Below, in pieces: positions 3,661-41,379 of a stretch of 44,032 nt of DNA. How positions within the stretch are numbered: position 1 is the first letter of the stretch; each line of letters opens with the position of its first letter. Under the pieces are notes generated by a model, which saw only the letters and a list, made by a program, of their open reading frames with translations, had not been told where the DNA came from and did no database searches. The stretch is from positions 1-44,032 of IMG/VR virus record IMGVR_UViG_2740892015_000005; one strand, written 5' to 3'. A program made the position numbers and the translations under genes. Origin of the DNA: a virus (Duplodnaviria; Heunggongvirae; Uroviricota; Caudoviricetes).

Positions 3661-3813
3661 TAAGCCTCCTCCGTCTGTAAAATACGATCCACTGGCCGGA
3701 TCGTTCCGCAAAAAAGCCAGCACGCTCCGGTCCCGCATTGTTATGGATGCATGACTCCTGGATGGGTGCTGGCATATGATGTCCATGCAGGTGTAGGTTT
3801 TGTAACCTGTTGA

Positions 3814-5118
3814 CTATGCTTGTTTAATTACATCCGATCCCACAGCGTGGGGCATGGATGGGGCAAACTCACTCAATTTCTGGTTTAAAATGGATACCTG
3901 ATCCTGATTGTTTTCTGCCATCCACGATCCGTAAACGCGATAAACCATCTGAGCATCAGAGTGTCCCATTTGCTTCGCGATGAAGTTAGGGTTAGCTCCA
4001 GCGGTCAAAGACCAACATGCATAAGTGTGCCTGGACTGATATGCTTTGCGGTAGCGAATCCCGGCGCGTCGCATTGCAGTTTCCCATGACTGATTAATCG
4101 ACCCAACTGCATAATGGTGCCCGGCAAGGCCATTACGCGTAACGATTTGCGGATTGAAAACAAAAGTGCACGGATGCATTTCAGTTCGACCATACTCACG
4201 AAGTTTCACTTCAACCTGATACTGCTTACCAAGCCGTGTCATTTCAGCCTGATTCTTAAGCACGTCTATTGCAGGTTGAATAAGGTTGATAACACGGTTT
4301 GTTCCCGCTTCGGTTTTTGGAAGAGTGAACTCTTTCGTTAATGTGTGGTTTCTTCTGATCGTCATTGTCCCAGCCTTCAGGTCTATATCTTCCCATGCCA
4401 GAGAAACCAACTCTCCGTGGCGAACTCCCGTATAAACAGCCAGTGACCACATATTTTTTAATTGCTGATGCTTAAATGCGTTAATCAACCTGACAAATTC
4501 ATCACGGGTTAACGGATCAGGTTCCGTTCGTGATCTCTTCAGTTGCGAAATGGCTGCGAACGGATTTTCTTTGATGTATCCGCTGTCGGCTGCGAACTGA
4601 AACATCCCCGCCATGGTGTTCATGTAGTTATTAACAGTTGGCACGGAACGTCCCTTAATGGGTGTTTTTTGCCCACGTTTCAGAACGTGATATCCGGTCA
4701 GCAAATCCTTTCGTATGAACAGTAGCTCTTCCTGAGTCACAGCAGATGCAAGTCTGTTGCCTCCGATTCGGGGAACCATATTTCTTACAATGGAGCTGTA
4801 ACGCCCCATCGCATTGGTACTGATTTCCAGCTTTTTCAGATCCAGCCATTTCTCAGCCAGGTCTGCGACGGTAATTTCCTTACTTTCCGCACCAAATTTT
4901 CTCAGGTTGGGAGAGTCCGGAAACTGAGCGGCATAGTCGAAATTACCCGTCTTAATGGAAAAACAAACAGATGCTCGTAGCTCGCCAGCTATTTTCCTGT
5001 TTTTTGGTGTATCCGGCACACCGAGACTTTCCCGCACTCGTGTGCCTTTATACATGAACCATATGCGGAGTGATCCGCCATGGTTCTCAACGCCTGTTGG
5101 GTATGCTGTCTTAGCCAT
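3814..5118 (-). CDS. int: Phage integrase (tyrosine recombinase)
   Basis: 434-aa ORF at the prophage edge with a C-terminal tyrosine-recombinase-like region (...HTYACWSL...). It lies next to an excisionase-like gene and marks the left boundary of the phage genes. Confidence 0.85.
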   Translation of the reverse strand: MAKTAYPTGVENHGGSLRIWFMYKGTRVRESLGVPDTPKNRKIAGELRASVCFSIKTGNFDYAAQFPDSPNLRKFGAESKEITVADLAEKWLDLKKLEISTNAMGRYSSIVRNMVPRIGGNRLASAVTQEELLFIRKDLLTGYHVLKRGQKTPIKGRSVPTVNNYMNTMAGMFQFAADSGYIKENPFAAISQLKRSRTEPDPLTRDEFVRLINAFKHQQLKNMWSLAVYTGVRHGELVSLAWEDIDLKAGTMTIRRNHTLTKEFTLPKTEAGTNRVINLIQPAIDVLKNQAEMTRLGKQYQVEVKLREYGRTEMHPCTFVFNPQIVTRNGLAGHHYAVGSINQSWETAMRRAGIRYRKAYQSRHTYACWSLTAGANPNFIAKQMGHSDAQMVYRVYGSWMAENNQDQVSILNQKLSEFAPSMPHAVGSDVIKQA

Positions 5119-14489: not shown

Positions 14490-15862
14490 GACAGGATATC
14501 GAAGCGAGCGTTATCGGTGGCCTGCTGATTGGTGGATTAACTCCAACCGCCAGCGACGTTCTGGCAACGCTGGAGCCGGAAGCGTTTTCAATTCCGCTCT
14601 ACCGGAAAGCCTTCGAGGTTATCCGCAAGCAGGCGCGAAACAGAAACCTAATCGACGCACTGATGGTTGCCGAGGCGTGCGGAGAGGAGCATTTCACGTC
14701 AATCCTGATGACCAGCAAAAACTGCCCGAGTGCCGCAAACCTGAAGGGATATGCCGGAATGGTCGCGGATAACTATCACCGCCGTCTGGTGCTGGAAATC
14801 ATGGATGAAATGCGTGAACCAATTCAGAGCGGAACCATCGACGCATCGAGTCAGGCGATGGATGAACTTGTAAAACGTCTCTCAGCCATCAGAAAGCCCC
14901 GTGACGAGGTAAAACCTGTACGGTTAGGGGAAATCATTACTGACTACACTGACACGCTTGACAGGCGTCTGAGGAACGGAGAAGAGTCAGATACCCTGAA
15001 GACCGGAATCGAAGAACTTGATGCCATCACCGGAGGGATGAACGCGGAAGACCTGGTGATTATCGCTGCTCGTCCTGGTATGGGGAAAACCGAGCTGGCG
15101 CTGAAGATTGCCGAAGGCGTTGCAAGCCGCGTTATTCCTGGTTCTGACGTCCGGCGCGGGGTATTGATTTTCTCAATGGAAATGAGCGCATTGCAGATTG
15201 CAGAGCGAAGCATTGCCAACGCCGGGAGAATGTCGGTTAGCGTGCTGCGAAATCCTGCATCGATGGATGACGAGGGCTGGGCACGTGTTGCTAACGGCAT
15301 GAGTCAGCTTGCGGATTTGGATGTATGGGTAGTCGATGCCTCGCGGTTATCGGTCGAAGAAATACGCTCAATCGCAGAACGGCACAAACAGGAAAATCCA
15401 AACCTGTCACTCATCATGGCGGATTATCTTGGCCTGATTGAGAAGCCGAAAGCAGATCGCAACGACCTCGCAATTGCTCACATCTCCGGAAGCCTTAAGG
15501 CGATGGCGAAAGACCTGAAAACGCCTGTTATCTCCCTGAGTCAGCTTTCACGCGATGTTGAGAAGCGACCAAACAAACGCCCGACAAACGCAGATTTGCG
15601 TGATTCAGGAAGCATTGAGCAGGACGCAGACTCAATCATCATGCTCTATCGGGAAGCGGTATATGACGAGAACAGTAGCGCCGCGCCATTTGCTGAAATC
15701 ATTGTGACGAAAAACCGTTTTGGCTCGCTTGGTACGGTTTACCAGCGGTTCTGTAACGGACACTTTGTTGCATGTGACCAGGATGAAGCCAGACAGATTT
15801 GCACAGCATCAAATGCACCTGCTGCGCGTGGCAGACGATATGCACAAGGGGCGGACGTATGA
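14486..15862 (+). CDS. DnaB-type replicative helicase (phage-encoded)
   Basis: Walker A GMGKT, RecA-like core and DnaB-type C-terminal motifs ([13 protein letters not shown]..., IIMLYRE). Confidence 0.9.
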
Positions 15863-15940
15863 CCATCTACATCACTGAGCTAATAGCATGGTTATCGTTA
15901 CTAATGGTTCTTACTGTATATATTATTAAGTATATTCTTT

Positions 15941-16552
15941 ATGCGAATAAAAAAACTAATTGATCACGATGAGCTTCTGTCAACATTATCATATGACTCA
16001 GAAACAGGAATATTTAAATGGCTAAAAACAAATTCAGTAGTAAGAGTAAAAGGTAGTATTGCTGGAGGTGTTAGTGGTGGTTATATATGCATTAGCATAA
16101 ATAATGTTTTGTATTATGCGCATAGACTTGCTTGGTTCTATGTATACAAAAAATGGCCTCCTAAGTTTATTGATCATGTAAATGGGAACAGACTTGACAA
16201 TAGGATTTCAAATCTAAGACTGGCAACAGAAGAGCAGAATGCAAGAAACATTGTAGGGAATAGATTAAACACATCCGGTGCAATTGGAGTGTCTTGGTAT
16301 AAGCCAACTGGCAGGTGGAAGTCTTATGTTGGTTATAAAAATAAGACAATATCGTTAGGGTATTTCGATAGCAAAGAAGATGCAGCATTCATAGCAGCAC
16401 TAGCAAGAAAGAAACTATATGGAACTTATGCGAGTAAAGCACTTAATTGCGAGCATGAGCTTTTATCTCAATTTAATAATGATGAGGATAAACTTGCGGA
16501 ATATCTTAAGGAAAAATCTAAAAGGACTCGAAAGCGTGTTAAAAACAGATAA
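15941..16552 (+). CDS. HNH homing endonuclease (HNH plus AP2-like domain)
   Basis: Motifs YAHRLAW...IDHVNGNRLDNRISNLRLAT (HNH) and GVSWYKPTGRWKSYV (AP2-like). Strongly AT-rich and followed by its own terminator. Confidence 0.8.
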   Translation: MRIKKLIDHDELLSTLSYDSETGIFKWLKTNSVVRVKGSIAGGVSGGYICISINNVLYYAHRLAWFYVYKKWPPKFIDHVNGNRLDNRISNLRLATEEQNARNIVGNRLNTSGAIGVSWYKPTGRWKSYVGYKNKTISLGYFDSKEDAAFIAALARKKLYGTYASKALNCEHELLSQFNNDEDKLAEYLKEKSKRTRKRVKNR

Positions 16553-16583
16553 AGGCCTGCTGGTAATCGCAGGCCTTTTTATT
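16552..16583 (+). terminator. Rho-independent terminator
   Basis: AGGCCTGC-TGGTAATC-GCAGGCCT hairpin followed by TTTTTATTT. Confidence 0.65.
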
Positions 16584-16599
16584 TGGGGGAGAGGGAAGT

Positions 16600-16926
16600 G
16601 TGGCTGACTGGCAAATTCCAATCATCATTCTTGCCGGAGCTTCGCTGGTTGCTGGCTTTATCCTTCTGAAAAAGCATAAAGACCGTGATCAAAAAGTCGA
16701 AGTTCTCTATGGGTATCCAGCGAACAGCACAACATGGCTGACCATTTACCACTACCGAAAATCAGGCCGCTGGGTATTCGAATGGGATGATCTGTTCGCT
16801 GAAAAGCGACCAAAGTCATGGGGAGACATCAGCGAATGCGTGATGTTTGAAGAAAGAAAATCCGGCGCAACCCGAGAAGAGTTTAACGAAGCGTGGGCGC
16901 GATTAAGTGAGAGAGGGTATTTGTGA
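16600..16926 (+). CDS. Hypothetical nin-region protein with N-terminal transmembrane helix (GTG start)
   Basis: GGGGGAGAGGGAAG Shine-Dalgarno before GTG; hydrophobic N-terminus IPIIILAGASLVAGFILL. Confidence 0.45.
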   Translation: MADWQIPIIILAGASLVAGFILLKKHKDRDQKVEVLYGYPANSTTWLTIYHYRKSGRWVFEWDDLFAEKRPKSWGDISECVMFEERKSGATREEFNEAWARLSERGYL

Positions 16927-17123
16927 GCAAGTACGAAAAATTAGATCAAAACATTCTTTCAATGCTGAGTGAAAGACCAACACCTGTTTTTGATATCTGG
17001 CTTAAATGGCGGAGCAATGGAATGTATATCGAAACCATCGATCGCCGTATGCAATACCTGAGAAAGAAAGGGCTTGTTGCAAATGTGCGTGGGAAGGGTT
17101 GGGTGAAAATTAACCTGTCATAA
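16923..17123 (+). CDS. Hypothetical nin-region protein (66 aa)
   Basis: Start overlaps the preceding stop; basic small protein. Confidence 0.4.
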   Translation: MSKYEKLDQNILSMLSERPTPVFDIWLKWRSNGMYIETIDRRMQYLRKKGLVANVRGKGWVKINLS

Positions 17124-17134
17124 CGGGGATTGAT

Positions 17135-17449
17135 ATGGACGAATCAAGAAAGAAGTTTGAGGAATACGTTGCCAAAAAATTGAGATTACCATTCGAGATG
17201 ATAACCGAGGCAAGAAATGGTGATAGGTACTTCGCATTTTCAAGCATGGATATTCGTCACTCCTTAAATGAGTGGTGGGCTTTATGGCAGGCATCGCGAG
17301 CAGCTATTGAAATAACCGCGCCAAAGTTTATCGACAGCAGAGAAGCATTAGCCAAAGGGTTTACTGTTGATTATTCCAATGGCTTCGGTGATGCAATGGA
17401 TGCTTATGAGGAAAACATCCGCTCTGCTGGAGTCAAAGTGAAGGAGTAA
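17135..17449 (+). CDS. Hypothetical nin-region protein (104 aa)
   Basis: ATG preceded by GGGGA; no recognisable motifs. Confidence 0.45.
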   Translation: MDESRKKFEEYVAKKLRLPFEMITEARNGDRYFAFSSMDIRHSLNEWWALWQASRAAIEITAPKFIDSREALAKGFTVDYSNGFGDAMDAYEENIRSAGVKVKE

Positions 17450-17451
17450 CG

Positions 17452-17862
17452 ATGAAGCAAACAATCTTCCTCCGAACTAAGCAACAACAGCAAGCTGCAA
17501 TAAATGCCATCCTCGCAACACCACTCGATAAAGACAAGCCAGTCACCATCCGCATTACTGACTACAAGCGAAATCTTGACCAGAACGCAAAATTTCACGC
17601 GATGCTGGCGGATATCGCTCGTCAGGTTCAATGGTGCGATAAGTGGTTAAAACCAGAACAATGGAAGGTTTTGTTGATTAGCGGTCATGCAGTGGCAACA
17701 AAGCAGGAAGCTGATGTTTTGCCCGGGCTTGAAGGCGAATACGTCAACATTCGCGAAAGCAGCGCGCAGATGAGCGTGAAGCGTATGGCAAGTCTGATCG
17801 AGTACACAACAGCATGGGCTATTGGTCAGGGAGTCAGATTTACCGACAGGAGGTACGAATGA
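17452..17862 (+). CDS. ninB: NinB (Orf-family recombination mediator)
   Basis: Alignable by eye with lambda NinB (RSLDQNRKLWACLGDVSRQVEWHGRWL versus [27 protein letters not shown] here). Confidence 0.8.
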
Positions 17863-18035
17863 GACGACAGCGACGAAGTTTCACCGACATCATCTGCGAA
17901 AACTGCAAATACCTTCCAACGAAACGCACCAGAAATAAACCCAAGCCAATCCCAAAAGAATCTGACGTAAAAACTTTCAATTACACGGCTCATCTGTGGG
18001 ATATCCGGTGGCTAAGACATCGTGCGAGGAAATGA
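17859..18035 (+). CDS. ninE: NinE
   Basis: [52 protein letters not shown] matches my recollection of lambda NinE. GGAGG Shine-Dalgarno; start overlaps the ninB stop. Confidence 0.65.
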
Positions 18036-18439
18036 CAATGCTTTTAATTCAACCTGGATTTGGCCTTAGCATCAAAAAAGGGCACATGTTTGGCGAGAAA
18101 GAGTCACAACGAAAAATGGTGTCTATCCGGTTGCCATTTATCAGTATTTATTGGCTAAACAGGGAGGCAACAAATTATTGGTATACATGTGCCAGAGCAG
18201 CATTTAACGACCCTGACTGGTTTGTGAAAAACCACCACGCAGTTCGTCAGGCAAAGAGAAAGGCCAATACGACATACATGAAGGCGTATCGAAAAGCATG
18301 GAAAGAACACCGCGATCGATACCAGCAAGACATGGAAAAGCTTGAATCAGAAAACATGGAATTAAGACGAAAGCTTGGTGAAGCAAAACGAGACATTGAT
18401 GCTTACAAGCGACTTTTTAATGGTGAAAGCCATGCTTAG
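18032..18439 (+). CDS. Hypothetical nin-region protein (about 135 aa) with C-terminal coiled coil
   Basis: ATGA overlap with the ninE stop; C-terminal heptad-like region ([27 protein letters not shown]). Confidence 0.4.
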
Positions 18440-18608
18440 TCCATCCCAATCTCTTCAATACCAGAAAGAAAGCGTCGAGCGAGCTTTAACGTGCGCTAAC
18501 TGCGGTCAGAAGCTGCATGTGCTGGAAGTTCACGTGTGTTCCGATTGCTGCGCAGAACTGATGAGCGATCCGAATAGCTCAATGTACGAGGAAGAAGACG
18601 ATGAGTGA
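18432..18608 (+). CDS. ninF: NinF
   Basis: [36 protein letters not shown]...ELMSDPNSSM matches my recollection of lambda NinF. Confidence 0.65.
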   Translation: MLSPSQSLQYQKESVERALTCANCGQKLHVLEVHVCSDCCAELMSDPNSSMYEEEDDE

Positions 18609-18813
18609 TTACCTGAAATGGTATCTCTGCCACCGCTGGTTAATTAAGTTTGCTGTAAAAGACTGGATGACAGCGGATGCCAACAAGCTTAAGCAAAGAA
18701 AGGACTATTACTACGCCAGAATGAAGGAAAACTACTGCTCAATTCGCACTCGCATATTTATTAAAAAAGACCTTCAGTCAATTCTTCAATTGCGAGGGAA
18801 GGTAAATGGCTAA
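18601..18813 (+). CDS. Hypothetical nin-region protein (70 aa)
   Basis: ORF overlapping its neighbours at both ends; no recognisable motifs. Confidence 0.4.
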   Translation: MSDYLKWYLCHRWLIKFAVKDWMTADANKLKQRKDYYYARMKENYCSIRTRIFIKKDLQSILQLRGKVNG

Positions 18814-19096
18814 CCTACGCAAAGAAGCACGCGGCAGAGAATGCCAGGTACGTATTTACGGCGTATGCAATGGCAATCCTGAAACTACAGTTCTGGCACA
18901 TTATCGGATGGCTGGAATTTGCGGAACTGGAATGAAGCCTGACGACCTGATCGGCGCATGGGCTTGTAGCGCGTGTCACGATGAAATCGACCGACGCACC
19001 CATAACCTCGACAACAAAGACGCCAGACTTTACCACCTGGAAGGCGTGATCAGGACGCAGGCGATACTGCTGAAGGAGGGGAAGATTAAGCCATGA
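18806..19096 (+). CDS. YbcO-like DUF1364 protein (putative nuclease)
   Basis: 96-aa cysteine/histidine-rich protein (CQVRIYGVC...CSACHDEID) immediately upstream of rusA, as ybcO is in DLP12. Confidence 0.6.
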   Translation: MANLRKEARGRECQVRIYGVCNGNPETTVLAHYRMAGICGTGMKPDDLIGAWACSACHDEIDRRTHNLDNKDARLYHLEGVIRTQAILLKEGKIKP

Positions 19097-19455
19097 ACGA
19101 ATATCAGTTTGTGCTTCCATACCCGCCGTCGGTGAACACCTACTGGCGAAGACGGGGAAGCCAATACTACATCAGCGATAAAGGCCAGAAATACCGAAAA
19201 GACGTTCAGCAAATCATCCGCCAACTTAAGTTAGACATTTTCACCAAATCACGACTCCGCATCAAAGTCATCGCAGACGTTCCAGACTCCCGCCGCCGCG
19301 ACCTCGACAACATCCTGAAAGGTTTACTCGACTCCCTTATCCACGCCGGATTTGCGGAAGACGACGAGCAATTCGATGACATTCGCGTAATTCGTGGTGT
19401 GAAAGTACCAGGCGGAAGGCTTGGAATAAAAATCACCGAACTGGAGAACGTATGA
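19093..19455 (+). CDS. rusA: RusA Holliday junction resolvase
   Basis: 120 aa; alignable with E. coli RusA (LPYPPSVNTYWRRRG..., DxxRRRDLDN motif, GGRLGIKITEL). Confidence 0.85.
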   Translation: MNEYQFVLPYPPSVNTYWRRRGSQYYISDKGQKYRKDVQQIIRQLKLDIFTKSRLRIKVIADVPDSRRRDLDNILKGLLDSLIHAGFAEDDEQFDDIRVIRGVKVPGGRLGIKITELENV

Positions 19456-19640
19456 ACGCCACAATTCAAACGATACCAGAGCTTCTTATCCAGACACGAG
19501 GCAATCAGACCGAAGTGGCGAGGATGCTTTCCTGCGCAAGAGGAACAGTGCTCAAGTACAACCGAGACAGCAAAGGCGAGCGTCACGTAATAGTTAACGG
19601 CGTCCTGATGGTCAAACAGGGCAAGAGGGGAAGACGATGA
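19452..19640 (+). CDS. ninH: NinH-like protein
   Basis: IPELLIQTRGNQTEVARMLSCARGTVLKY...VLMV resembles lambda NinH (IPDMLVEAYGNQTEVARRLKCSRGTVRKY). Confidence 0.65.
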   Translation: MNATIQTIPELLIQTRGNQTEVARMLSCARGTVLKYNRDSKGERHVIVNGVLMVKQGKRGRR

Positions 19641-20155
19641 GTATAAGAGAACTAAACCTCACCAAAGAACAGCACGATTGGCTGAATGGCTGGCTTGAAC
19701 TGTGGGGCGCATGGGTTTATTCAGGCCGCCTGGAAAAGCGCATGAGCAGCGTAATAGCGAAGTTCATGGAGAGCGTAGAGCCGGGAAGAGTTATGACAAG
19801 GCCAATGTGTAATGATGATGATGGAATGTTGATTTCTCAGGTCGTCGATTCCGTGATGTACATTGACAAGAAAGCCTTTGGCATCCTCCTCAGCTACTAC
19901 GCTCATGGTTCATCTAAGCGAGCAATTGCATCCTACTATCACGCGACTGCAAAGCCACGCAAGATGTGTGGGCGTGGTGGCGAGGGATGGAGAAAACCTT
20001 CACTGGCAACCTGTAGAAACGAAATTGACGATATCCTGAAAGCGTCATTATTTGTTTTGTACCAACCAATGCAAAATGCTTTCAAAATGCGTAAACGTGT
20101 TGAGAAAGTTAAGCATGTTGCTGTTAAAAGCCTTGACATGCAATTAGCCATTTAG
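19637..20155 (+). CDS. Q: Late antitermination protein Q (phage 82 type)
   Basis: Position immediately upstream of the PR'/tR' elements and the lysis cassette. N-terminal LELWGAWV-type motif and cysteine cluster as in Q proteins I recall. Confidence 0.65.
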   Translation: MSIRELNLTKEQHDWLNGWLELWGAWVYSGRLEKRMSSVIAKFMESVEPGRVMTRPMCNDDDGMLISQVVDSVMYIDKKAFGILLSYYAHGSSKRAIASYYHATAKPRKMCGRGGEGWRKPSLATCRNEIDDILKASLFVLYQPMQNAFKMRKRVEKVKHVAVKSLDMQLAI

Positions 20156-20162
20156 CCATAAT
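20133..20162 (+). promoter_or_regulatory. Putative late promoter PR'
   Basis: TTGACA, 17-18-nt spacer, CATAAT overlapping the Q stop codon; about 50 nt upstream of the tR' hairpin. Confidence 0.45.
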
Positions 20163-20202
20163 ATTCACATATGCTGCTGCTTTTGTATTCAGCAACCATC
20201 AC

Positions 20203-20228
20203 AAGCCCACCTCCTGTGGGCTTTTTTG
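20203..20228 (+). terminator. tR'-like terminator (Q antitermination target)
   Basis: AAGCCCAC-CTCCT-GTGGGCTT hairpin followed by TTTTTT, directly downstream of PR'. Confidence 0.6.
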
Positions 20229-20349
20229 CATTCGCGTGCAATCAAAACAAGAGTCTTAGTGATATGGGCCTGAGATATGGTGGTGGAAACATCGCTCCGC
20301 TCTTGGCTGTCATATCTACGCGAACAGGCTCTATCCCTAAGGTAAAGCG

Positions 20350-20862
20350 ATGAAAGAAATAAAATTAACGCCAGAAATGGTGCTTTCTGTTGTTGATTAC
20401 AATCCATCATCAGGCGACTTTCACTGGAGATGGAGGCAGGGGAGAGAGAGGACCACTTTGACATGGAACTCTCGTTTTGCTTTCAAGAAATGCTCATCAA
20501 TAAATTCTGATGGGTATTTAATGATTATGATTAATGGTAAAGCATACCCTGCTCACAGACTGGCATGGTTGATTGTTTATGGCACCATGCCCGATGGTTT
20601 TATTGATCACATCAACAGGGTAAGAACAGATAACCGGATATCAAATCTTCGTCTTGTCACTCATTCCGAAAATATGCAAAACAGGAAAATTCAGAAGAAT
20701 AATAAATCTGGATACCGTGGCGTGTCTTGGGATGCTAAGTACGGGAAATGGAGAGCAAGAATTAATGCGTCTGGAAAGTGTATTAACCTTGGATACCATG
20801 ACACTGCCGAACTTGCCGCTGCGGCTTTTGAGGCAGCCAGAATGAAATATCATACCGTTTAA
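20350..20862 (+). CDS. HNH homing endonuclease (HNH plus AP2-like domain) in the late leader
   Basis: AHRLAWLIVYG...IDHINRVRTDNRISNLRLVT (HNH) and GYRGVSWDAKYGKWRARI (AP2-like). Paralogous to the ORF at 15941..16552; AT-rich. Confidence 0.8.
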   Translation: MKEIKLTPEMVLSVVDYNPSSGDFHWRWRQGRERTTLTWNSRFAFKKCSSINSDGYLMIMINGKAYPAHRLAWLIVYGTMPDGFIDHINRVRTDNRISNLRLVTHSENMQNRKIQKNNKSGYRGVSWDAKYGKWRARINASGKCINLGYHDTAELAAAAFEAARMKYHTV

Positions 20863-21429
20863 AGATGTAAGCTGCCGTTAGTGACTCTTAAGTTGCAACG
20901 GTGGCTTTTTTGTTTGCACAACAGGTAAGAGCATTGAACCCGCAGACCTCGCGGAATTGGTGAAAGGTGCCGCGCAGTACTCTTATCGTTGTGGTGAATA
21001 CGCAGGCTGATGCGTTAATCAGGTGAACGAGACACCCGCCGGTCCGTGATATGGCACACCGTGCCGGTCATATCTGCCGCGGTTAGGTTTACGAGGATTT
21101 CGTAAAGCTGGTCTAGGGTGAAGCCGTGAAAGCGGAGGAAGTAAAACGAGGCGTCGGTACACGCCTATCGTCATTAAGTCGGAGTTCAGCACCGACCGCC
21201 ACAACCCAAACTGAGCCGTAGCCACTGGCTGTCCTGAATTCATCAGTGATAGTTATGCTGCGGCCTTCTACACATGACCTTCGTGAAAGCGGGTGGCATG
21301 AGGTTGCGCTAACAACCTCATGCCGTTTTGCCCGTGCATATCGGTCACGAACAAATCTGATTACTAAACACAGTAGCCTGGATTTGTTCTATCAGTAATC
21401 GACCTTATTCCTAATTAAATAGAGCAAAT

Positions 21430-21443
21430 CCCCTTATTGGGGG
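21430..21443 (+). promoter_or_regulatory. Stem-loop overlapping the S ribosome-binding site (sdi-like translational control element)
   Basis: CCCC-TTATT-GGGG hairpin immediately 5' of the tandem starts ATGAAGATG of S, as in lambda S107/S105 dual-start regulation. Confidence 0.45.
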
Positions 21444-21449
21444 TAAGAC

Positions 21450-21773
21450 ATGAAGATGCCAGAAAAACATGACCTGTTAGCCGCCATTCTCGCGGCAAAG
21501 GAACAAGGCATCGGAGCAATCCTTGCGTTTGCAATGGCGTACCTTCGCGGCAGATATAATGGCGGTGCGTTTACAAAAACAGTAATCGACGCAACGATGT
21601 GCGCCATTATCGCCTGGTTCATTCGTGACCTTCTCGACTTCGCCGGACTAAGTAGCAATCTCGCTTATATAACGAGCGTGTTCATCGGCTACATCGGTAC
21701 TGACTCGATTGGTTCGCTTATCAAACGCTTCGCTGCTAAAAAAGCCGGAGTAGAAGATGGTGGAAATCAATAA
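21450..21773 (+). CDS. S: Holin S (class I, dual start)
   Basis: Sequence [62 protein letters not shown]... is essentially lambda S as I recall it. Confidence 0.9.
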
Positions 21774-23833: not shown

Positions 23834-24274
23834 ATGGCGCGCCCAACAAAGTATCAAGAGGCGTACGCCGAACAGGCACGCAAACTGTGCTTGCTGGGCT
23901 ACACCGATGCAGAGCTTGCTGATTTCTTCGAAGTTAGTGAGTCAACTATTAACAAGTGGAAGCTTGATTATCCTAAGTTTTCGGAGTCCATAAAAAAGGG
24001 TAAGGCCGTCGCTGATGCAGAAGTTAGTGATCGTCTTTATCAACGCGCTATGGGCTTCGTGGCTCCAGACATCGATATTCGTGTTATTGAAAACAGAATT
24101 GTCGAAACTCCGCTTGAGAAGTATTACCCGCCTGATACAACCGCCGCCATCTTCTGGCTTAAGAACCGACAGAAGGATAAATGGCGCGACAAGGTTGATC
24201 ACGAGCTAACAGGCAAAGACGGCGGCGCAATCCAGATTGAAACATCACCGATGAGCAATCTATTCGGAAAATGA
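23834..24274 (+). CDS. Terminase small subunit
   Basis: N-terminal HTH-like region (LGYTDAELADFFEVSESTINKWK) and position directly upstream of, and overlapping, the large terminase gene. Confidence 0.7.
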   Translation: MARPTKYQEAYAEQARKLCLLGYTDAELADFFEVSESTINKWKLDYPKFSESIKKGKAVADAEVSDRLYQRAMGFVAPDIDIRVIENRIVETPLEKYYPPDTTAAIFWLKNRQKDKWRDKVDHELTGKDGGAIQIETSPMSNLFGK

Positions 24275-25686
24275 CCTCGATTAATCCTATCTTTGAACCG
24301 TTCATTGAGGCGCATCGCTACAAAGTCGCCAAAGGCGGTCGAGGTAGCGGTAAGTCATGGGCAATTGCGAGGCTTCTTGTTGAAGCGGCGCGTCGGCAGC
24401 CTGTGCGTATTCTCTGCGCTCGTGAACTGCAAAACAGTATCAGCGATTCAGTAATCCGGTTGCTTGAAGACACCATAGAGCGGGAGGGGTATTCGGCTGA
24501 GTTTGAAATTCAGCGTTCCATGATTCGTCATCTCGGAACGAATGCTGAGTTCATGTTCTACGGCATCAAAAACAACCCGACGAAGATTAAATCGCTCGAA
24601 GGCATTGATATCTGCTGGGTGGAAGAAGCGGAAGCGGTAACAAAGGAATCGTGGGATATCCTGATACCAACCATCCGCAAGCCGTTCTCTGAAATATGGG
24701 TGAGCTTTAACCCGAAGAACATCCTCGACGATACCTATCAGCGATTCGTTGTAAATCCTCCCGATGATATTTGCCTGCTGACGGTGAACTACACCGACAA
24801 CCCGCATTTTCCTGAAGTTCTCTGTCTGGAGATGGAAGAGTGCAAACGCAGAAATCCGACACTGTATCGTCACATCTGGCTTGGTGAGCCGGTAAGCGCA
24901 AGTGATATGGCAATCATCAAACGTGAATGGCTTGAAGCTGCTACCGATGCGCACAAGAAACTCGGATGGAAAGCGAAAGGCGCTGTTGTCTCTGCGCATG
25001 ACCCATCAGATACAGGGCCAGATGCTAAAGGTTATGCATCGCGTCACGGTTCGGTGGTTAAGCGCATTGCCGAAGGTCTACTGATGGACATCAACGAGGG
25101 TGCTGACTGGGCTACTTCTCTGGCGATTGAAGACGGCGCTGACCACTACCTGTGGGATGGCGATGGCGTTGGTGCCGGGCTACGCAGACAGACAACGGAA
25201 GCATTCTCCGGTAAGAAAATCACCGCCACGATGTTTAAGGGCAGCGAATCGCCGTTCGATGAAGATGCACCGTATCAGGCCGGAGCATGGGCTGATGAAG
25301 TCGTGCAGGGCGACAACGTTCGCACTATTGGCGATGTGTTCCGCAATAAGCGAGCGCAATTCTATTACGCGCTGGCTGACAGGTTGTATCTGACATATCG
25401 GGCGGTTGTCCACGGTGAGTATGCAGACCCCGACGACATGCTGAGCTTCGACAAAGAAGCGATAGGCGAGAAGATGCTGGAGAAGCTGTTTGCAGAACTG
25501 ACGCAGATTCAGCGCAAATTCAATAACAACGGGAAGCTGGAGCTAATGACTAAGGTCGAAATGAAGCAGAAGCTCGGTATTCCATCTCCTAACCTGGCTG
25601 ATGCGTTGATGATGTGTATGCATTGCCCGGAGTCGGTTGCGCAACCAGACTATTCCAGTTACTCAATTCCTTGTGGTGTAGGTTGA
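24271..25686 (+). CDS. Terminase large subunit (ATPase/nuclease)
   Basis: Walker A KGGRGSGKSWA, Walker B-like ICWVEEAEA and a C-terminal nuclease-like domain. The 471-aa size is similar to Sf6-type TerL. Confidence 0.9.
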   Translation: MTSINPIFEPFIEAHRYKVAKGGRGSGKSWAIARLLVEAARRQPVRILCARELQNSISDSVIRLLEDTIEREGYSAEFEIQRSMIRHLGTNAEFMFYGIKNNPTKIKSLEGIDICWVEEAEAVTKESWDILIPTIRKPFSEIWVSFNPKNILDDTYQRFVVNPPDDICLLTVNYTDNPHFPEVLCLEMEECKRRNPTLYRHIWLGEPVSASDMAIIKREWLEAATDAHKKLGWKAKGAVVSAHDPSDTGPDAKGYASRHGSVVKRIAEGLLMDINEGADWATSLAIEDGADHYLWDGDGVGAGLRRQTTEAFSGKKITATMFKGSESPFDEDAPYQAGAWADEVVQGDNVRTIGDVFRNKRAQFYYALADRLYLTYRAVVHGEYADPDDMLSFDKEAIGEKMLEKLFAELTQIQRKFNNNGKLELMTKVEMKQKLGIPSPNLADALMMCMHCPESVAQPDYSSYSIPCGVG

Positions 25687-30823: not shown

Positions 30824-30928
30824 ATGCCGATTCAGCAACTTCCGCTTATGAAAGGTGTCGGCAAAGACTTCCTAAACGCCGACTATATCGACTATCTGCC
30901 AGTGAATATGTTGGCAATTTTGATATAA
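30824..30928 (+). pseudogene. Remnant 5' fragment of gene 10 (first 31 codons, then premature stop)
   Basis: MPIQQLPLMKGVGKDFLNADYIDYLPVNMLA matches the P22 gp10 N-terminus as I recall it, then runs into ILI-stop. GAGGTGA Shine-Dalgarno. The intact gene resumes at 31497 with a recoded copy of the same codons. Confidence 0.6.
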
Positions 30929-30964
30929 TAAGTACATGAAAAATCGAAACTTTAAGGAGTAGAT

Positions 30965-31549
30965 ATGCTTTCTGAGAATGCTAAAGATATACCTGGATTT
31001 GAAGGTGTTTATGCCGTAACAGAAGATGGCAGGGTATATTCTCACTCACGTGTTGTTAAGGCTGCGCATGGCAGCACGCAACTCAGAAAGGGGCGCTGGT
31101 TAAAGCCTAAAATCAATCAGGGAAGGGTGCTTTATAATATCGGAGCAAAATGGACTTTTGCCCATCGAATCGTTGCAATGACATTCCTGCCAAATCCTGA
31201 AAACAAGCCTCAGGTAAATCATATTGATGGCAATCCACTCAATAATAACGTCAATAATCTTGAGTGGTGCACTCAAAGCGAAAACATCAAACATGCATAC
31301 GCCACCGGATTAAAGAAACCAATCAAGTTTTTCGGAACCAAGCACCCAAAACACAAGTTGAGTGATGACGATGTTCTTGCAATCAAGTCATCAAAAGAAA
31401 GCTTGTCAGTAATTGCGGCTAAGTACGGAATATCTAAGACCTGGGCAAGTAGGCTAAAGCGTGATGCTAACTGGGTTCATATAAAGGCTGATTCCAATGG
31501 CAATACAACAACTACCACTAATGAAGGGATTGGGGAAAAGTGCGGTTAA
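30965..31549 (+). CDS. HNH homing endonuclease (NUMOD4-like N-terminus plus HNH)
   Basis: N-terminal [19 protein letters not shown] module and HNH motif (FLPNPENKPQVNHIDGNPLNNNVNNLEWCTQSEN). AT-rich. The 3' end overlaps the gene 10 start. Confidence 0.8.
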   Translation: MLSENAKDIPGFEGVYAVTEDGRVYSHSRVVKAAHGSTQLRKGRWLKPKINQGRVLYNIGAKWTFAHRIVAMTFLPNPENKPQVNHIDGNPLNNNVNNLEWCTQSENIKHAYATGLKKPIKFFGTKHPKHKLSDDDVLAIKSSKESLSVIAAKYGISKTWASRLKRDANWVHIKADSNGNTTTTTNEGIGEKCG

Positions 31550-32915
31550 TGCTGATTATATAGACCAACTTCCAGTCAATCTTTTAGCTACGCCCAAGGA
31601 GGTGTTGAATTCATCGGGATATCTTCGCTCATTCCCGGGCATTGCAAAACGTTCCGACGTGAATGGCGTATCGCGGGGCGTCGAGTACAACATGGCGCAG
31701 AGTGCTGTTTATCGTGTGTGTGGTGGCAAGCTGTACAAAGGAGAAAGTGAAGTCGGTGATGTTGCCGGAAGTGGTCGTGTATCAATGGCGCATGGTCGGA
31801 CATCACAGGCGGTAGGAGTTAATGGTCAACTGGTCGAGTATCGTTATGATGGCACGGTTAAAACCGTCTCAAACTGGCCAACAGACAGCGGATTCACGCA
31901 GTATGAATTAGGTTCGGTCCGTGACATTACGCGCTTACGTGGGCGTTATGCGTGGTCAAAAGACGGCACTGATTCATGGTTTATCACTGACCTTGAAGAC
32001 GAATCGCATCCTGACCGATACAGCGCACAATATCGCGCAGAATCGCAGCCTGACGGCATCATCGGCATCGGAACATGGCGAGACTTCATCGTATGCTTTG
32101 GTTCATCAACGATTGAATATTTCTCCCTGACTGGTGCAACCACCGTTGGTGCCGCTTTGTATGTCGCACAGCCATCGCTGATGGTGCAGAAAGGTATTGC
32201 CGGGACTTACTGCAAAACGCCATTCGCTGATTCTTATGCGTTCATCAGCAATCCGGCAACAGGTGCGCCGTCTGTATATATCATCGGCTCCGGTCAGGTA
32301 TCACCAATCGCCAGCGCGAGCATTGAGAAAATCCTCCGCTCCTACACTGCTGATGAACTTGCTGATGGTGTGATGGAGTCTCTGCGATTTGATGCGCATG
32401 AGCTGCTGATTATTCACCTGCCGCGCCATGTCCTCGTGTACGACGCATCTTCAAGCGCCAATGGTCCGCAATGGTGCGTACTGAAAACAGGCCTGTATGA
32501 CGATGTGTACCGCGCTATCGACTTCATTTACGAAGGCAATCAGATAACGTGCGGCGATAAGCTGGAGTCCGTGACCGGGAAACTGCAGTTCGATATATCT
32601 TCACAATACGAAAAACAACAAGAGCATATTTTATATTCCCCTCTAATAAAGGCAGATAACGCTTTAATAAATGACCTTGAATTAGAAACATCTGGCGGCG
32701 TGTGTGATAGAATAGATAAAATATTTATATCAGCCACTACAGATGGAATTAGTTACGGTCGTGAGCAAATGGTCGTATTACAAAAACCATTTGTATATGA
32801 CAATCGCGTTTTATGGCGAAAGGTTGGTCGAGTTAGACGCCTCATCGGATTTAAATTCAGAGTTATTGCAAAAGGTCCTGTCACATTATCAGGCCTTTCT
32901 ATTCGTGCAACATAA
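31497..32915 (+). CDS. Gene 10 product (P22 gp10-like tail hub protein)
   Basis: 472 aa, co-linear with P22 gp10 as I recall it. The first roughly 30 codons and the last roughly 110 codons are AT-rich (recoded) relative to the middle. Confidence 0.8.
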   Translation: MAIQQLPLMKGLGKSAVNADYIDQLPVNLLATPKEVLNSSGYLRSFPGIAKRSDVNGVSRGVEYNMAQSAVYRVCGGKLYKGESEVGDVAGSGRVSMAHGRTSQAVGVNGQLVEYRYDGTVKTVSNWPTDSGFTQYELGSVRDITRLRGRYAWSKDGTDSWFITDLEDESHPDRYSAQYRAESQPDGIIGIGTWRDFIVCFGSSTIEYFSLTGATTVGAALYVAQPSLMVQKGIAGTYCKTPFADSYAFISNPATGAPSVYIIGSGQVSPIASASIEKILRSYTADELADGVMESLRFDAHELLIIHLPRHVLVYDASSSANGPQWCVLKTGLYDDVYRAIDFIYEGNQITCGDKLESVTGKLQFDISSQYEKQQEHILYSPLIKADNALINDLELETSGGVCDRIDKIFISATTDGISYGREQMVVLQKPFVYDNRVLWRKVGRVRRLIGFKFRVIAKGPVTLSGLSIRAT

Positions 32916-32936
32916 ATCGAAACTCAAGGAGTAGAT

Positions 32937-33470
32937 ATGTTAAGTGAAAACGCAAAAGATATCGAAGGATATGAAGGACTGTACGCCATCACTAATGATG
33001 GTAGAGTTTACTCGCATTCAAGAGTAAATTTGAGGGGACGCCTTATTAAGGGTAGGTGGCTAAAGCATAATCATAACGTAAATGGATATAAGTATGTGTG
33101 TTTATATAAGGATGGCGTAAAAAAGAACATACTAATACATAAGCTTGTTGCATCTCACTTTGTTGGTGGATTTGCTGAAGGGTTACAGGTAAATCATATA
33201 GATGGTGATAAATATAATAATAACTATCTAAATCTTGAATGGGTTACTCCATCAGGAAACATCTCACACTCATATGGATTGGAGTCGAGAGGTAATGTAA
33301 AAGGAGAAAGGAATGGTAATTCTAAAATATCTAATGATGATGTCATAAAGATAAAAGAAATGGTTGCCAATGGATTTCCTCAGTGTGAAGTTGCTAAATT
33401 ATTTGGAATTCACAATTCAAAGGTTAGTAGAATTGTAAATGGCAAGGCATGGAGGCATGTTAATGGCTGA
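32937..33470 (+). CDS. HNH homing endonuclease (NUMOD4-like plus HNH plus C-terminal HTH), paralogue of 30965..31549
   Basis: Shares the upstream sequence AAATCGAAACT..AAGGAGTAGATATG and the N-terminus [25 protein letters not shown] with the other gene-10-associated HNH. Motif [22 protein letters not shown]. Confidence 0.8.
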
Positions 33471-40449: not shown

Positions 40450-41379
40450 ATGAAAAGTATAGCAACAGCAGTATCTACTATCAACGTGCCATTCCACGGC
40501 GCAGAGCTTTATGTCGTCAATCACAACGGTGAGCCGTACACCCCAATGAAACCTATCGTTGAAGGTATGGGTATGGATTGGGCTTCACAGTTTACGAAAA
40601 TAAAGCAACGGTTTAAAACCTCCATTGTGAAAATCACAATGCAGCTTCCTGGTGATGAACAGTGCCGTGAGATTATTTGTTTGGCACTTCGCAAACTTGC
40701 TGGCTGGCTGCAAACCATCAGTCCAAACAAAGTCCGCCCTGAAATCCGCGACAAGGTAATCCAGTATCAGGAAGAGTGTGACGATGTGCTATACGAGTAC
40801 TGGACTAAAGGCCATGTAGTTAACCCACGCAAAGCTAAAAAGGCGTTGCCGGGTAAAATCACCACTGAACAGCAGGAAGCCATTAAACAACTCGTCATGA
40901 GTCGCGGTCAGTCTCTGCCAAAGGAAAAACAGGCTAAGGCGATGATCACCATGTGGTCGTCACTGAAATCCCATTTTGGATGTTCATACAAAGAAATCAG
41001 TGAGGAGCAGTTTACCGAAGCACTGTCACTTGCAGCTCGAGTTCCGCTTGAAGGTGAGTTCATTGGCAAACAAGAGAAGAAAACCAACGAGCTTTCTGCA
41101 AAAGAAGCAAACAGCCTTGTATGGCTATGGGATTATGCCAACCGCTCACAGGCATTATTCCGCGAACTGTATCCGGCATTAAAACAAATTCAATCGAACT
41201 ATTCCGGCAGATGCTACGACTACGGTCATGAATTCTCGTATGTTATCGGAATGGCGAGAGACGTTTTAATCAATCACACACGAGATGTTGATATCAATGA
41301 GCCAGACGGACCAACGAATATTTCCGCATGGATGAGACTTAAGAATAAAGAATTACCTCCTTCAGTACATAACTACTGA
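40450..41379 (+). CDS. ant: Antirepressor (P22 Ant-like)
   Basis: Position downstream of arc; 309 aa (P22 Ant is about 300 aa); N-terminal segment [32 protein letters not shown] fits the P22 antirepressor N-domain pattern. Confidence 0.65.

Follow-up and report, generated by a model that had tools for sequence, protein, structure and literature searches.

HNH-A and HNH-B in a P22-like prophage

We analyzed a 44,032-nucleotide stretch of DNA (IMG/VR virus record IMGVR_UViG_2740892015_000005, class Caudoviricetes; referred to here as the window), in which two related HNH endonuclease genes, HNH-A and HNH-B, lie in the replication region and in the late leader of a temperate lambdoid prophage. 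A P22-like prophage adjoining fliE in Escherichia coli NZ_OZ040490.1 matches the window with 100% identity, and domain matches together with RefSeq annotation identify a P22-type virion gene set in this prophage. HNH-A is preceded by genes for a Rep O-like protein and a DnaB helicase; the genes for NinB, YbcO, RusA, and Q lie between HNH-A and HNH-B, and holin, lysozyme, and Rz genes follow HNH-B. The original prediction for this DNA had proposed the two open reading frames (ORFs), and both are present on the plus strand exactly where it placed them:

15941..16552, plus strand: HNH-A gene, 203 amino acids (aa), with an I-HmuI-like HNH_3 domain, an AP2-like domain, and a basic C-terminal tail; RefSeq WP_015980142.1
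20350..20862, plus strand: HNH-B gene, 170 aa, with I-HmuI-like HNH_3 and AP2 domains; RefSeq WP_000658765.1

RefSeq already calls both genes HNH endonucleases ("HNH endonuclease" for WP_015980142.1 and "HNH endonuclease signature motif containing protein" for WP_000658765.1), so that their annotation is little changed by our results. The HNH_3 domain (PF13392; cut-off, 24.8 bits) is matched by HNH-A at 57.8 bits (E value, 8e-16) and by HNH-B at 66.1 bits (E value, 2e-18), and the AP2 domain (PF00847) is matched by HNH-B at 35.1 bits, above the gathering cut-off of 33.3. The two proteins are 40% identical over 161 aa (E value, 3e-30), a stretch that includes the AP2 region, and both match phrog_99, "HNH endonuclease," in PHROG with E values of approximately 1e-72. 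The GC content is 34.5% for ORF A and 40.9% for ORF B, compared to 45.8% for the prophage. The view that the two genes are AT-rich, AP2-like relatives of each other is borne out by these identities, base compositions, and Pfam matches.

The catalytic residues are D78-H79, N91, and N100/N103 in HNH-A and D86-H87, N99, and N108/N111 in HNH-B. When the proteins are aligned with I-HmuI (Protein Data Bank [PDB] accession 1U3E), the Asp-His pair, the Asn of "NLR," and the downstream Asn are conserved in both; we take these to be the general-base His preceded by Asp, the structural Asn, and the metal-ligand Asn of the I-HmuI motif. Across 40 diverse homologues, HNH-A included, drawn from Enterobacterales, Acidovorax, Delftia, Caulobacterales, and metagenomes, D86, H87, N89, N99, L100, R101, and N111 (HNH-B numbering) are invariant, and N108 is nearly so. 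The original prediction had allowed for a missing catalytic HNH motif; the motif is intact in this alignment and aligns with that of I-HmuI.

An AlphaFold2 model of HNH-B has a mean predicted local distance difference test score of 91.5. Searched with Foldseek, its N-terminal ~107 residues have I-HmuI (1U3E) as the top PDB match with a probability of 1.0; the E value is only 2e-3 and the TM-score 0.35, since a single domain matches. The C-terminal ~50 residues of the model superpose on the AP2 domains of AtERF1 (1GCC) and TEM1 (7ET4/7ET5) with root-mean-square deviations of 1.2 to 1.7 Å. The beta-beta-alpha-metal fold is present in the predicted structure of HNH-B. Neither protein matches any NCBIfam model, and in PADLOC both match only generic "homing endonuclease" models, weakly; no defense or other functional assignment for HNH-A or HNH-B came from PADLOC or NCBIfam.

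Insertion sites at tR2 and in the PR' leader

Both genes lie within short insertions whose junctions can be read from related phages and prophages that lack them. At site A, located past the replication genes, the empty allele of mEp213, Kapi1, Sf6, and ZH063 reads ATGACCATCTACATCACTGAGCTAATAACAGG to the left of the insertion point and CCTGCTGGTAATCGCAGGCCTTTTTATTTGGGGG to the right of it. The window has the following features at this site:

15859..15890, plus strand: left half of a conserved boundary sequence (Sf6 "bsq6"), beginning where ATGA overlaps the stop codon of the helicase gene and flanking cassette A on the left
15859..15963, plus strand: small hydrophobic ORF of 34 aa, with its first 9 to 11 codons from a resident NinA-like mini-ORF and the rest from cassette A; overlaps the HNH-A start codon
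15891..16555, plus strand: cassette A, a 665-bp insertion; clean indel relative to mEp213, Kapi1, Sf6, and ZH063
16551..16588, plus strand: resident lambda-type tR2 intrinsic terminator, found by a terminator scan (hairpin 16551..16578 plus T-run); not part of the cassette

The position of HNH-A after the helicase gene agrees with the original prediction. The cassette A junction is ambiguous by 3 nt, as the left flank and the insert both end in AGG, and 3 nt separate the stop codon of HNH-A from the right junction. The left half of the boundary sequence is identical in filled and empty alleles, whether it follows a DnaB-type helicase gene, HK022 P, or ren. In the Sf6 annotation, the uninterrupted 81 bp is labeled "bsq6; boundary sequence" and the hairpin "tR2, homology to phage lambda." HNH-A had been credited with a terminator of its own; however, the hairpin at 16551..16578 (fold, -20.7 kcal/mol; z, -4.4) is the resident tR2, because the same hairpin is present in the empty sites of relatives that lack the HNH gene, and cassette A lies just 5' of it. 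An A-to-G change 5 nt to the left of the cassette is found in five of five filled alleles and zero of four empty ones, which are few alleles, and this base may belong to the insert itself.

The small ORF at the left junction has a counterpart in the empty site, where a hydrophobic mini-ORF of 27 aa extends across the tR2 hairpin; in Sf6 this is gene 45 (positions 377-460 of the Sf6 sequence L015), described as "similar to phage 21 NinA." The small ORF begins where its ATG overlaps, as ATGA, the stop codon of the replication gene in front of it, whichever that is. It appears in annotations as HK022_56 and H3H24_gp28 and, in Sf6, as gene 45, and PGAP makes no call for it in the window.

Within cassettes A and B, a sigma-70 scan detected no promoter-like site on the plus strand; the matches in the cassettes score 9/12 and are on the minus strand. 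Because cassette A has no promoter and lies upstream of tR2, HNH-A would be a delayed-early gene that shares its transcription from PR with the replication genes.

Site B is the leader of the late promoter, where the window has the following features:

20133..20162, plus strand: late promoter PR' of the Q21 family, Sf6 subtype (TTGACA-18-CATAAT); overlaps the 3' end of Q
20163..20866, plus strand: cassette B, 704 bp replacing the resident PR' discriminator TAGAAG (-6..-1), from alignments with CUS-3, HK75, Sf6, and ZH063
20170..20175, plus strand: -10-like hexamer TATGCT at predicted positions +2..+7; candidate substitute for the resident sigma-dependent pause element TAAGCT
20203..20229, plus strand: cassette B intrinsic terminator (hairpin 20203..20223), found by scan and fold and annotated as a rho-independent terminator in HK629; acts as a first tR'
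20867..20913, plus strand: full copy of the resident 21-type leader without its promoter (+1 G at 20867, TAAGCT at 20868..20873, and tR' hairpin 20869..20907 plus T-run)

PR' is the best promoter match (11/12) and the sole strong one in 15700..21500, and its sequence is the same as that of the annotated late promoter of Sf6. Between its hexamers, at 20144..20159, the direct repeat TTAGCCAT occurs twice and is a putative Q-binding repeat. The Q21 binding element likewise lies between the -35 and -10 elements and is made up of two subsites in direct repeat, in which the C:G pairs at -21 and -13 are essential (PMC6606751), and the positions of the repeat at PR' fit these pairs. Q loading requires no more than positions -40..-1 and a sigma-dependent pause element in its native place (10.1101/651190). 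When the Q21 numbering is applied to PR', the predicted +1 falls at 20169.

In the empty alleles of CUS-3, HK75, Sf6, and ZH063, the sequence runs CATAAT-TAGAAG-G(+1)-TAAGCT(+2..+7) and then into the tR' hairpin; this stretch is annotated in CUS-3 as "bsq4; boundary sequence." In the filled allele, cassette B supplies, in order, a discriminator and a new +1, TATGCT at +2..+7, a leader hairpin and an intrinsic terminator, a 126-nt spacer with an AAGG ribosome-binding site, and HNH-B. This AAGG Shine-Dalgarno sequence lies ~8 nt upstream of HNH-B. The spacing of TATGCT from the -10 element is 7 nt, the same as that of TAAGCT in the empty alleles and in true phage-21-type promoters, suggesting that TATGCT functions as a cassette-borne pause element. 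The leader copy behind the cassette is identical to the empty alleles of the same four relatives, and its tR' (fold, -19.8 kcal/mol; z, -4.9) is annotated as tR' in Sf6 and HK75. At both sites, the stop codon of the ORF is 3 to 5 nt from the right junction. The Rfam search gave no match within 15700..21600, even at an E value of ≤1.

These features revise the location that was first given for HNH-B. It had been placed between tR' and the lysis genes, in the region corresponding to orf-64; instead, it lies inside the PR' leader, between two leader terminators, 3' of the cassette terminator and 5' of the resident tR'. The proposal that the late copy is placed for expression from PR' under Q holds up better: since the Q-binding element is untouched and a pause-like hexamer stands at the correct spacing, Q-dependent expression of HNH-B is a well-founded expectation. 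Q would load at PR' through the repeat upstream of the insert and read through both terminators, making HNH-B the first late gene. HK629, which is listed as a complete phage genome, has the exact cassette B arrangement, which suggests that the arrangement is compatible with late gene expression. A "putative pR'" annotated in HK629 just upstream of HNH-B has no counterpart in our promoter scan.

The right junction of cassette B is also a natural module junction, as a true phage-21-type Q gene and promoter joins the same leader exactly at TAAGCT. The phage-21-type Q protein (162 aa) is 85% identical to that of the window, diverges in its C-terminal part, and is paired with two copies of TGAGCA between -35 and -10. 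As a side observation, the Q protein and the Q-binding element covary: the 172-aa Sf6-type Q of the window (19637..20155) goes with TTAGCC(AT) twice (both within 19637..20175), and the TGAGCA pairing is that of E. coli 14EC001 and MB64 (L019 and L020). Downstream of the leader, the segment between tR' and the holin gene (20998..21195) also varies. It holds genes for tRNA-Asn and tRNA-Thr in Sf6, E2348/69, and pCDF6_2, an unrelated filler of ~200 bp in the window and CUS-3, and yet another sequence in ZH063 and HK75. ARAGORN found no tRNA gene in the window.

Distribution of the cassettes and the case for homing

The ZH063 prophage, like those of many other strains, is syntenic with the window and ~97.5% identical to it from the helicase gene to Rz and lacks both HNH genes. 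The differences are a clean indel of 665 bp at site A and, at site B, 6 bp where the window has 704 bp. The alignment with related prophages that had been suggested as a check thus yielded exact insertion points, and the genes are not part of a core conserved in all relatives, as HNH-A and HNH-B are absent from most of them. Frequencies were obtained from a survey set of 5,426 complete E. coli genomes, which was also screened for two further HNH genes of the same prophage (structural HNH genes 1 and 2, described below):

Cassette A: 126 genomes (138 places); uninterrupted site, 1,885 (in another count, 2,996 places in 2,052 genomes, up to 6 per genome)
Cassette B: 41 genomes (39 full length; 44 places); uninterrupted site, 360
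Structural HNH gene 1: 18 to 34 genomes
Structural HNH gene 2: 36 genomes

Cassettes therefore fill roughly 5 to 10% of the sites. The prophage has four HNH_3 genes, namely, HNH-A, HNH-B, and two of the NUMOD4 type flanking gene 10. This corresponds to a density of homing endonuclease genes (HEGs) of ~1 per 10 kb, which is similar to that of T4 with its 15 HEGs (PMC4837284). Each of the four cassettes occurs in 0.3 to 2.3% of the genomes, and the 8.2-kb segment with both A and B is whole in 1 of the 5,426, the source genome only. The description of this load as unusual is a fair one, although the genes themselves are of a known selfish kind and represent ordinary biology; the presence of four in one prophage is the only slightly unusual point.

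The same cassettes are found on many backbones. Cassette A is 98 to 100% identical at the DNA level, with the same junctions, in HK022, SH2026Stx1, PA28, and other Shiga toxin (Stx) phages, where its upstream neighbor is a DnaB-type helicase gene (the window and SH2026Stx1), HK022 P, or ren (PA28), and it is followed by three downstream modules. The protein encoded by HK022 gene 57 is 100% identical to HNH-A, and HNH-B is 98 to 99% identical in HK629 (gp62) and E. coli E2348/69. Cassette B is likewise followed by three different modules, which are the CUS-3-type filler, the tRNA-Asn/tRNA-Thr segment, and a different holin gene with the RrrD lysozyme gene. The Q genes beside filled B alleles are not monophyletic; the filled E2348/69 and pCDF6_2 are each closest to the empty Sf6 (4 nt), whereas the window and HK629, both filled, differ at 14 sites. 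The insertion junctions of HK022, HK629, Stx phages 1717, PA28, and SH2026Stx1, and E2348/69 are identical to those of the window. However, none of the named phages, the Stx phages, or E2348/69 carries both A and B, nor the two structural copies besides, and their annotations read "HNH endonuclease" or "hypothetical protein" only, with no analysis of the site. As HK022 (with A) and HK629 (with B) are listed as complete genomes of named phages, the insertions appear compatible with phage function.

Decayed copies were also found. The HNH-A copy in H110 is split into two ORFs, and the PhiR12 phages keep the alternative leader together with only the first 69 nt of HNH-B. In a rare allele present in 1 to 2 of the 5,426 genomes (E. 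coli WCHEC115106, L010, positions 1495-1580), PR' is followed by the alternative leader and terminator, which adjoin the common downstream sequence directly; the HNH gene and the 21-type leader are both missing. Repeats of GGCTTTTTTG end both leader terminators (at 20219 and 20903), and a deletion between them gives exactly this product; the allele is either the product of such a deletion or the ancestral source of the alternative leader. An apparent second insertion site for cassette B, suggested by a gp4-HNH fusion (P0020), was rejected, because the fusion comes from a defective prophage (Logan SRR31121835 contig 181, L014, positions 3767-4264). There, a deletion has joined the N-terminal half of HNH-B to the C-terminal part of gene 4, with loss of the genes for lysis, terminase, portal, scaffold, and coat proteins. 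A selfish HEG is expected to go through such a cycle of invasion, spread across backgrounds, and degeneration.

We interpret HNH-A and HNH-B as free-standing HEGs of the HNH-AP2 family, carried as minimal cassettes of ~0.7 kb in conserved regulatory linkers, with a probability of approximately 0.7. That the genes belong to this family and are sporadic insertions is highly probable, and we lean toward current homing activity at sites A and B. The domain architecture, catalytic residues, exact junctions, presence/absence polymorphism, occurrence on many backbones, and decayed copies are established. What we infer is when the genes are expressed, that Q loads on the substitute pause element, that the enzymes are active nucleases, and where they cleave, and these would combine in the following way. 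The promoterless cassette A, 5' of tR2, would be expressed early and cassette B late, the latter supplying its own +1, -10-like pause element, and terminator ahead of the resident copy of the leader and tR'. Filled and empty lambdoid genomes would meet in one cell by superinfection or upon induction in a polylysogen, a plausible event given that a single genome can hold site A at as many as six places. The enzyme would nick or cut at or near the uninterrupted site, and recombinational repair off the filled allele would copy the cassette in. The filled allele would be protected, its site being split by the insertion.

The two genes could instead be passive, moron-like passengers, relics that are no longer mobile or never were at these sites, with a patchiness that stems from homologous recombination at boundary sequences and from deletion. 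Both sites do coincide with annotated mosaic boundary sequences (bsq6 and bsq4), the flanking modules are shuffled on either side, and the right junction of cassette B is used by the true phage-21-type Q and promoter as well; however, the junctions are nucleotide-identical in every context, with stop codons 3 to 5 nt from the right junction, which fits a site-specific element. Truncated and deleted derivatives exist, as expected of relics, but the ORFs considered here are full length with invariant catalytic residues, and copies 98 to 100% identical across backbones with unrelated helicase, ren, and nin modules suggest recent spread. All four cassettes of the prophage are, moreover, of the HEG type. 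We consider the passive explanation unlikely.

Several points nevertheless weigh against active homing endonucleases. Both sites are known recombination linkers, and modular recombination and deletion could give the same patchy distribution with no endonuclease involved; ordinary recombination at linker sequences is the main rival explanation of the pattern. The co-conversion signal is weak: in a comparison of 12 alleles, a single site near the cassette, 20059 at ~100 nt from the junction, goes with cassette B, being shared by eight of eight cassette-derived alleles and one of four empty ones, a small sample. In the comparison with ZH063, the 15800-15899 bin has seven mismatches, all to the left of cassette A, compared to zero to six per 100 nt in the rest of the helicase gene. 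No obvious Shine-Dalgarno sequence precedes HNH-A, and the protein's AP2 match of 28.7 bits is under the Pfam cut-off of 33.3; its AP2 region aligns with that of HNH-B and gives weak matches to the AP2 chains of plant WRI1 and TEM1, so that an AP2 domain is probably present. Monomeric enzymes of the I-HmuI type nick a single strand, and how efficiently a nick starts repair is uncertain. We found no direct evidence of nuclease activity or homing for HNH-A, HNH-B, or close relatives, and no experimental paper on HK022 gene 57 or HK629 gp62 in searches whose terms included neither HK629 nor the protein accessions.

A further possibility is that the nucleases serve inter-phage competition or marker exclusion by cutting rival lambdoid genomes with an uninterrupted tR2 or PR', with homing as a by-product. 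The targets are very common (2,996 places for site A), encounters in polylysogens are likely, and the expression timing predicted from the anatomy, early for A and late for B, would be suitable. The candidate defense components in PADLOC also include the "homing endonuclease" models that the two proteins match weakly. However, cassettes that fill so few of the available sites are rare, and their decay argues against a strong benefit. This explanation overlaps with homing in mechanism and differs only in the beneficiary, and we regard it as quite improbable.

The location of both cassettes raises a more far-reaching and doubtful idea, which is that the enzymes cut the boundary sequences (bsq6/tR2 and bsq4/PR') and thereby actively drive lambdoid mosaicism at module junctions, with cassettes built to repair the interruptions that they cause. 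Under such a design, the portable pause element and terminator of cassette B may keep the late operon under Q control, cassette A may keep the NinA-like ORF open and tR2 intact, and one of the HEGs at gene 10 may bring a re-coded 5' end. When the left ends of the cassettes are compared with their own targets, 16 of 39 positions agree in register for A (p ~0.03) and 10 of 20 for B (p ~0.01), which is suggestive only. Around the junction, empty sites A and B share 8 of 14 bases (p ~0.01 in a fixed register, uncorrected for the choice of register), and this is a lead only. The two enzymes might share a core recognition motif, AGG followed across the insertion point by NNNGCTG, which is found at both empty sites. 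Both insertion sites are inside regulatory linkers that Clark and Casjens-style annotations mark as mosaic boundaries. If the enzymes do cut these linkers, there would be a concrete and testable mechanism for lambdoid module recombination at these junctions, and HK022 and HK629 would offer a tractable temperate-phage system for intron-less homing.

Among known systems, proteins in which an HNH domain stands at the N terminus and an AP2 domain at the C terminus form a HEG family present in protists, cyanobacteria, and phages (PMC10448857). Members of this family (PHROG 99) have the same domain order as HNH-A and HNH-B and are small, free-standing, AT-rich ORFs. Using tblastn, relatives of the two proteins were detected in 2,349 of 50,697 phage records, often with several per genome and up to five in T5-like phages. 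The multicopy cases among the matches listed are in large phage genomes of ~110 to 120 kb, including a T5-like one, whereas HNH-A and HNH-B reside in a temperate lambdoid prophage. I-HmuI of Bacillus phage SPO1 has the same HNH_3 type and is the best structural match to the N-terminal ~107 residues, but the sequence identity is ~20%, and HNH-A and HNH-B are free-standing and carry AP2 domains. I-HmuI is intron encoded, has a helix-turn-helix and a NUMOD-type C-terminal DNA-binding region, and nicks one strand. HNH-A and HNH-B are inserted in noncoding regulatory DNA (a terminator and a promoter leader), in contrast to the HEGs described by Barth et al., which cluster near essential protein-coding genes.

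Roles other than homing were also considered. HNH proteins encoded beside terminase genes stimulate cos cleavage in HK97-like phages (PMC10448857), and HNH-A and HNH-B could be packaging accessory factors of this kind, similar to HK97 gp74. Like the two proteins studied here, gp74 is an HNH nuclease of a lambdoid phage, but its gene is directly upstream of the terminase genes and the cos site, whereas the terminase genes of the window (23834..25686) adjoin neither HNH-A nor HNH-B. Gp74 also belongs to a different HNH subfamily, is not known to carry an AP2 domain, and is conserved within its own phage group. Furthermore, the prophage has a P22-type virion gene set, and P22-type phages package DNA by a headful mechanism that does not need cos cleavage. 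Alternatively, since AP2 binds DNA in a sequence-specific manner and the two genes are located in regulatory DNA, the proteins could be AP2-type transcription regulators acting at tR2 or PR', but the full nuclease motif is conserved and would be superfluous for a pure regulator. Most close relatives lack A and B yet share the packaging and regulatory modules of the prophage, and we consider either role very improbable.

The HNH-AP2 family, its architecture, and the presence of the same genes in public records as HNH endonucleases are already known. Sporadic HNH genes in lambdoid phages have been noted previously (PMC12315714), and for these specific insertions we found only such general remarks in the literature. 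New here are the nucleotide-level insertion sites, their coincidence with boundary sequences and with tR2 and PR', the self-compensating structure of cassette B, and the frequencies of the four cassettes.

HNH genes around gene 10 and a split antirepressor gene

The original prediction counted two further copies in the structural region, for a total of four, and both carry NUMOD4 and HNH_3 domains:

30965..31549, plus strand: structural HNH gene 1, NUMOD4 and HNH_3; inserted in the 5' end of gene 10
32937..33470, plus strand: structural HNH gene 2, NUMOD4 and HNH_3; between gene 10 and the next downstream gene

We take the gene downstream of structural HNH gene 2 to be the tail-needle gene 26 by P22 gene order; no domain match identified it as such. 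The proteins encoded by structural HNH genes 1 and 2 are 42.5% identical (E value, 7e-39), and the genes have near-identical 5' leaders at 30940..30967 (AATCGAAACTTTAAGGAGTAGATATG) and 32912..32939 (AATCGAAACTCAAGGAGTAGATATG). They look like one NUMOD4-HNH lineage flanking gene 10.

Within 30824..31590, the native first 31 codons of P22 gene 10 survive as an orphan fragment (30824..30916), which PGAP annotates as a pseudogene. At the start of the functional gene 10 (31497..32915) stands a version of this stretch that is re-coded and richer in AT, identical at 61 of 93 nt and 23 of 31 aa, and the re-coded start overlaps the 3' end of the structural HNH gene 1 ORF. A re-coded 5' end is a classic way in which a HEG restores its target gene while probably making the gene resistant to cleavage.

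Elsewhere in the prophage, the antirepressor gene of the immI region (40450..41379) is annotated by PGAP in two pieces, a pseudogene fragment for the N-terminal part (40450..40833) and a distinct ORF for the C-terminal part (40951..41379), and based on this split annotation, the ant gene of the prophage may be damaged.

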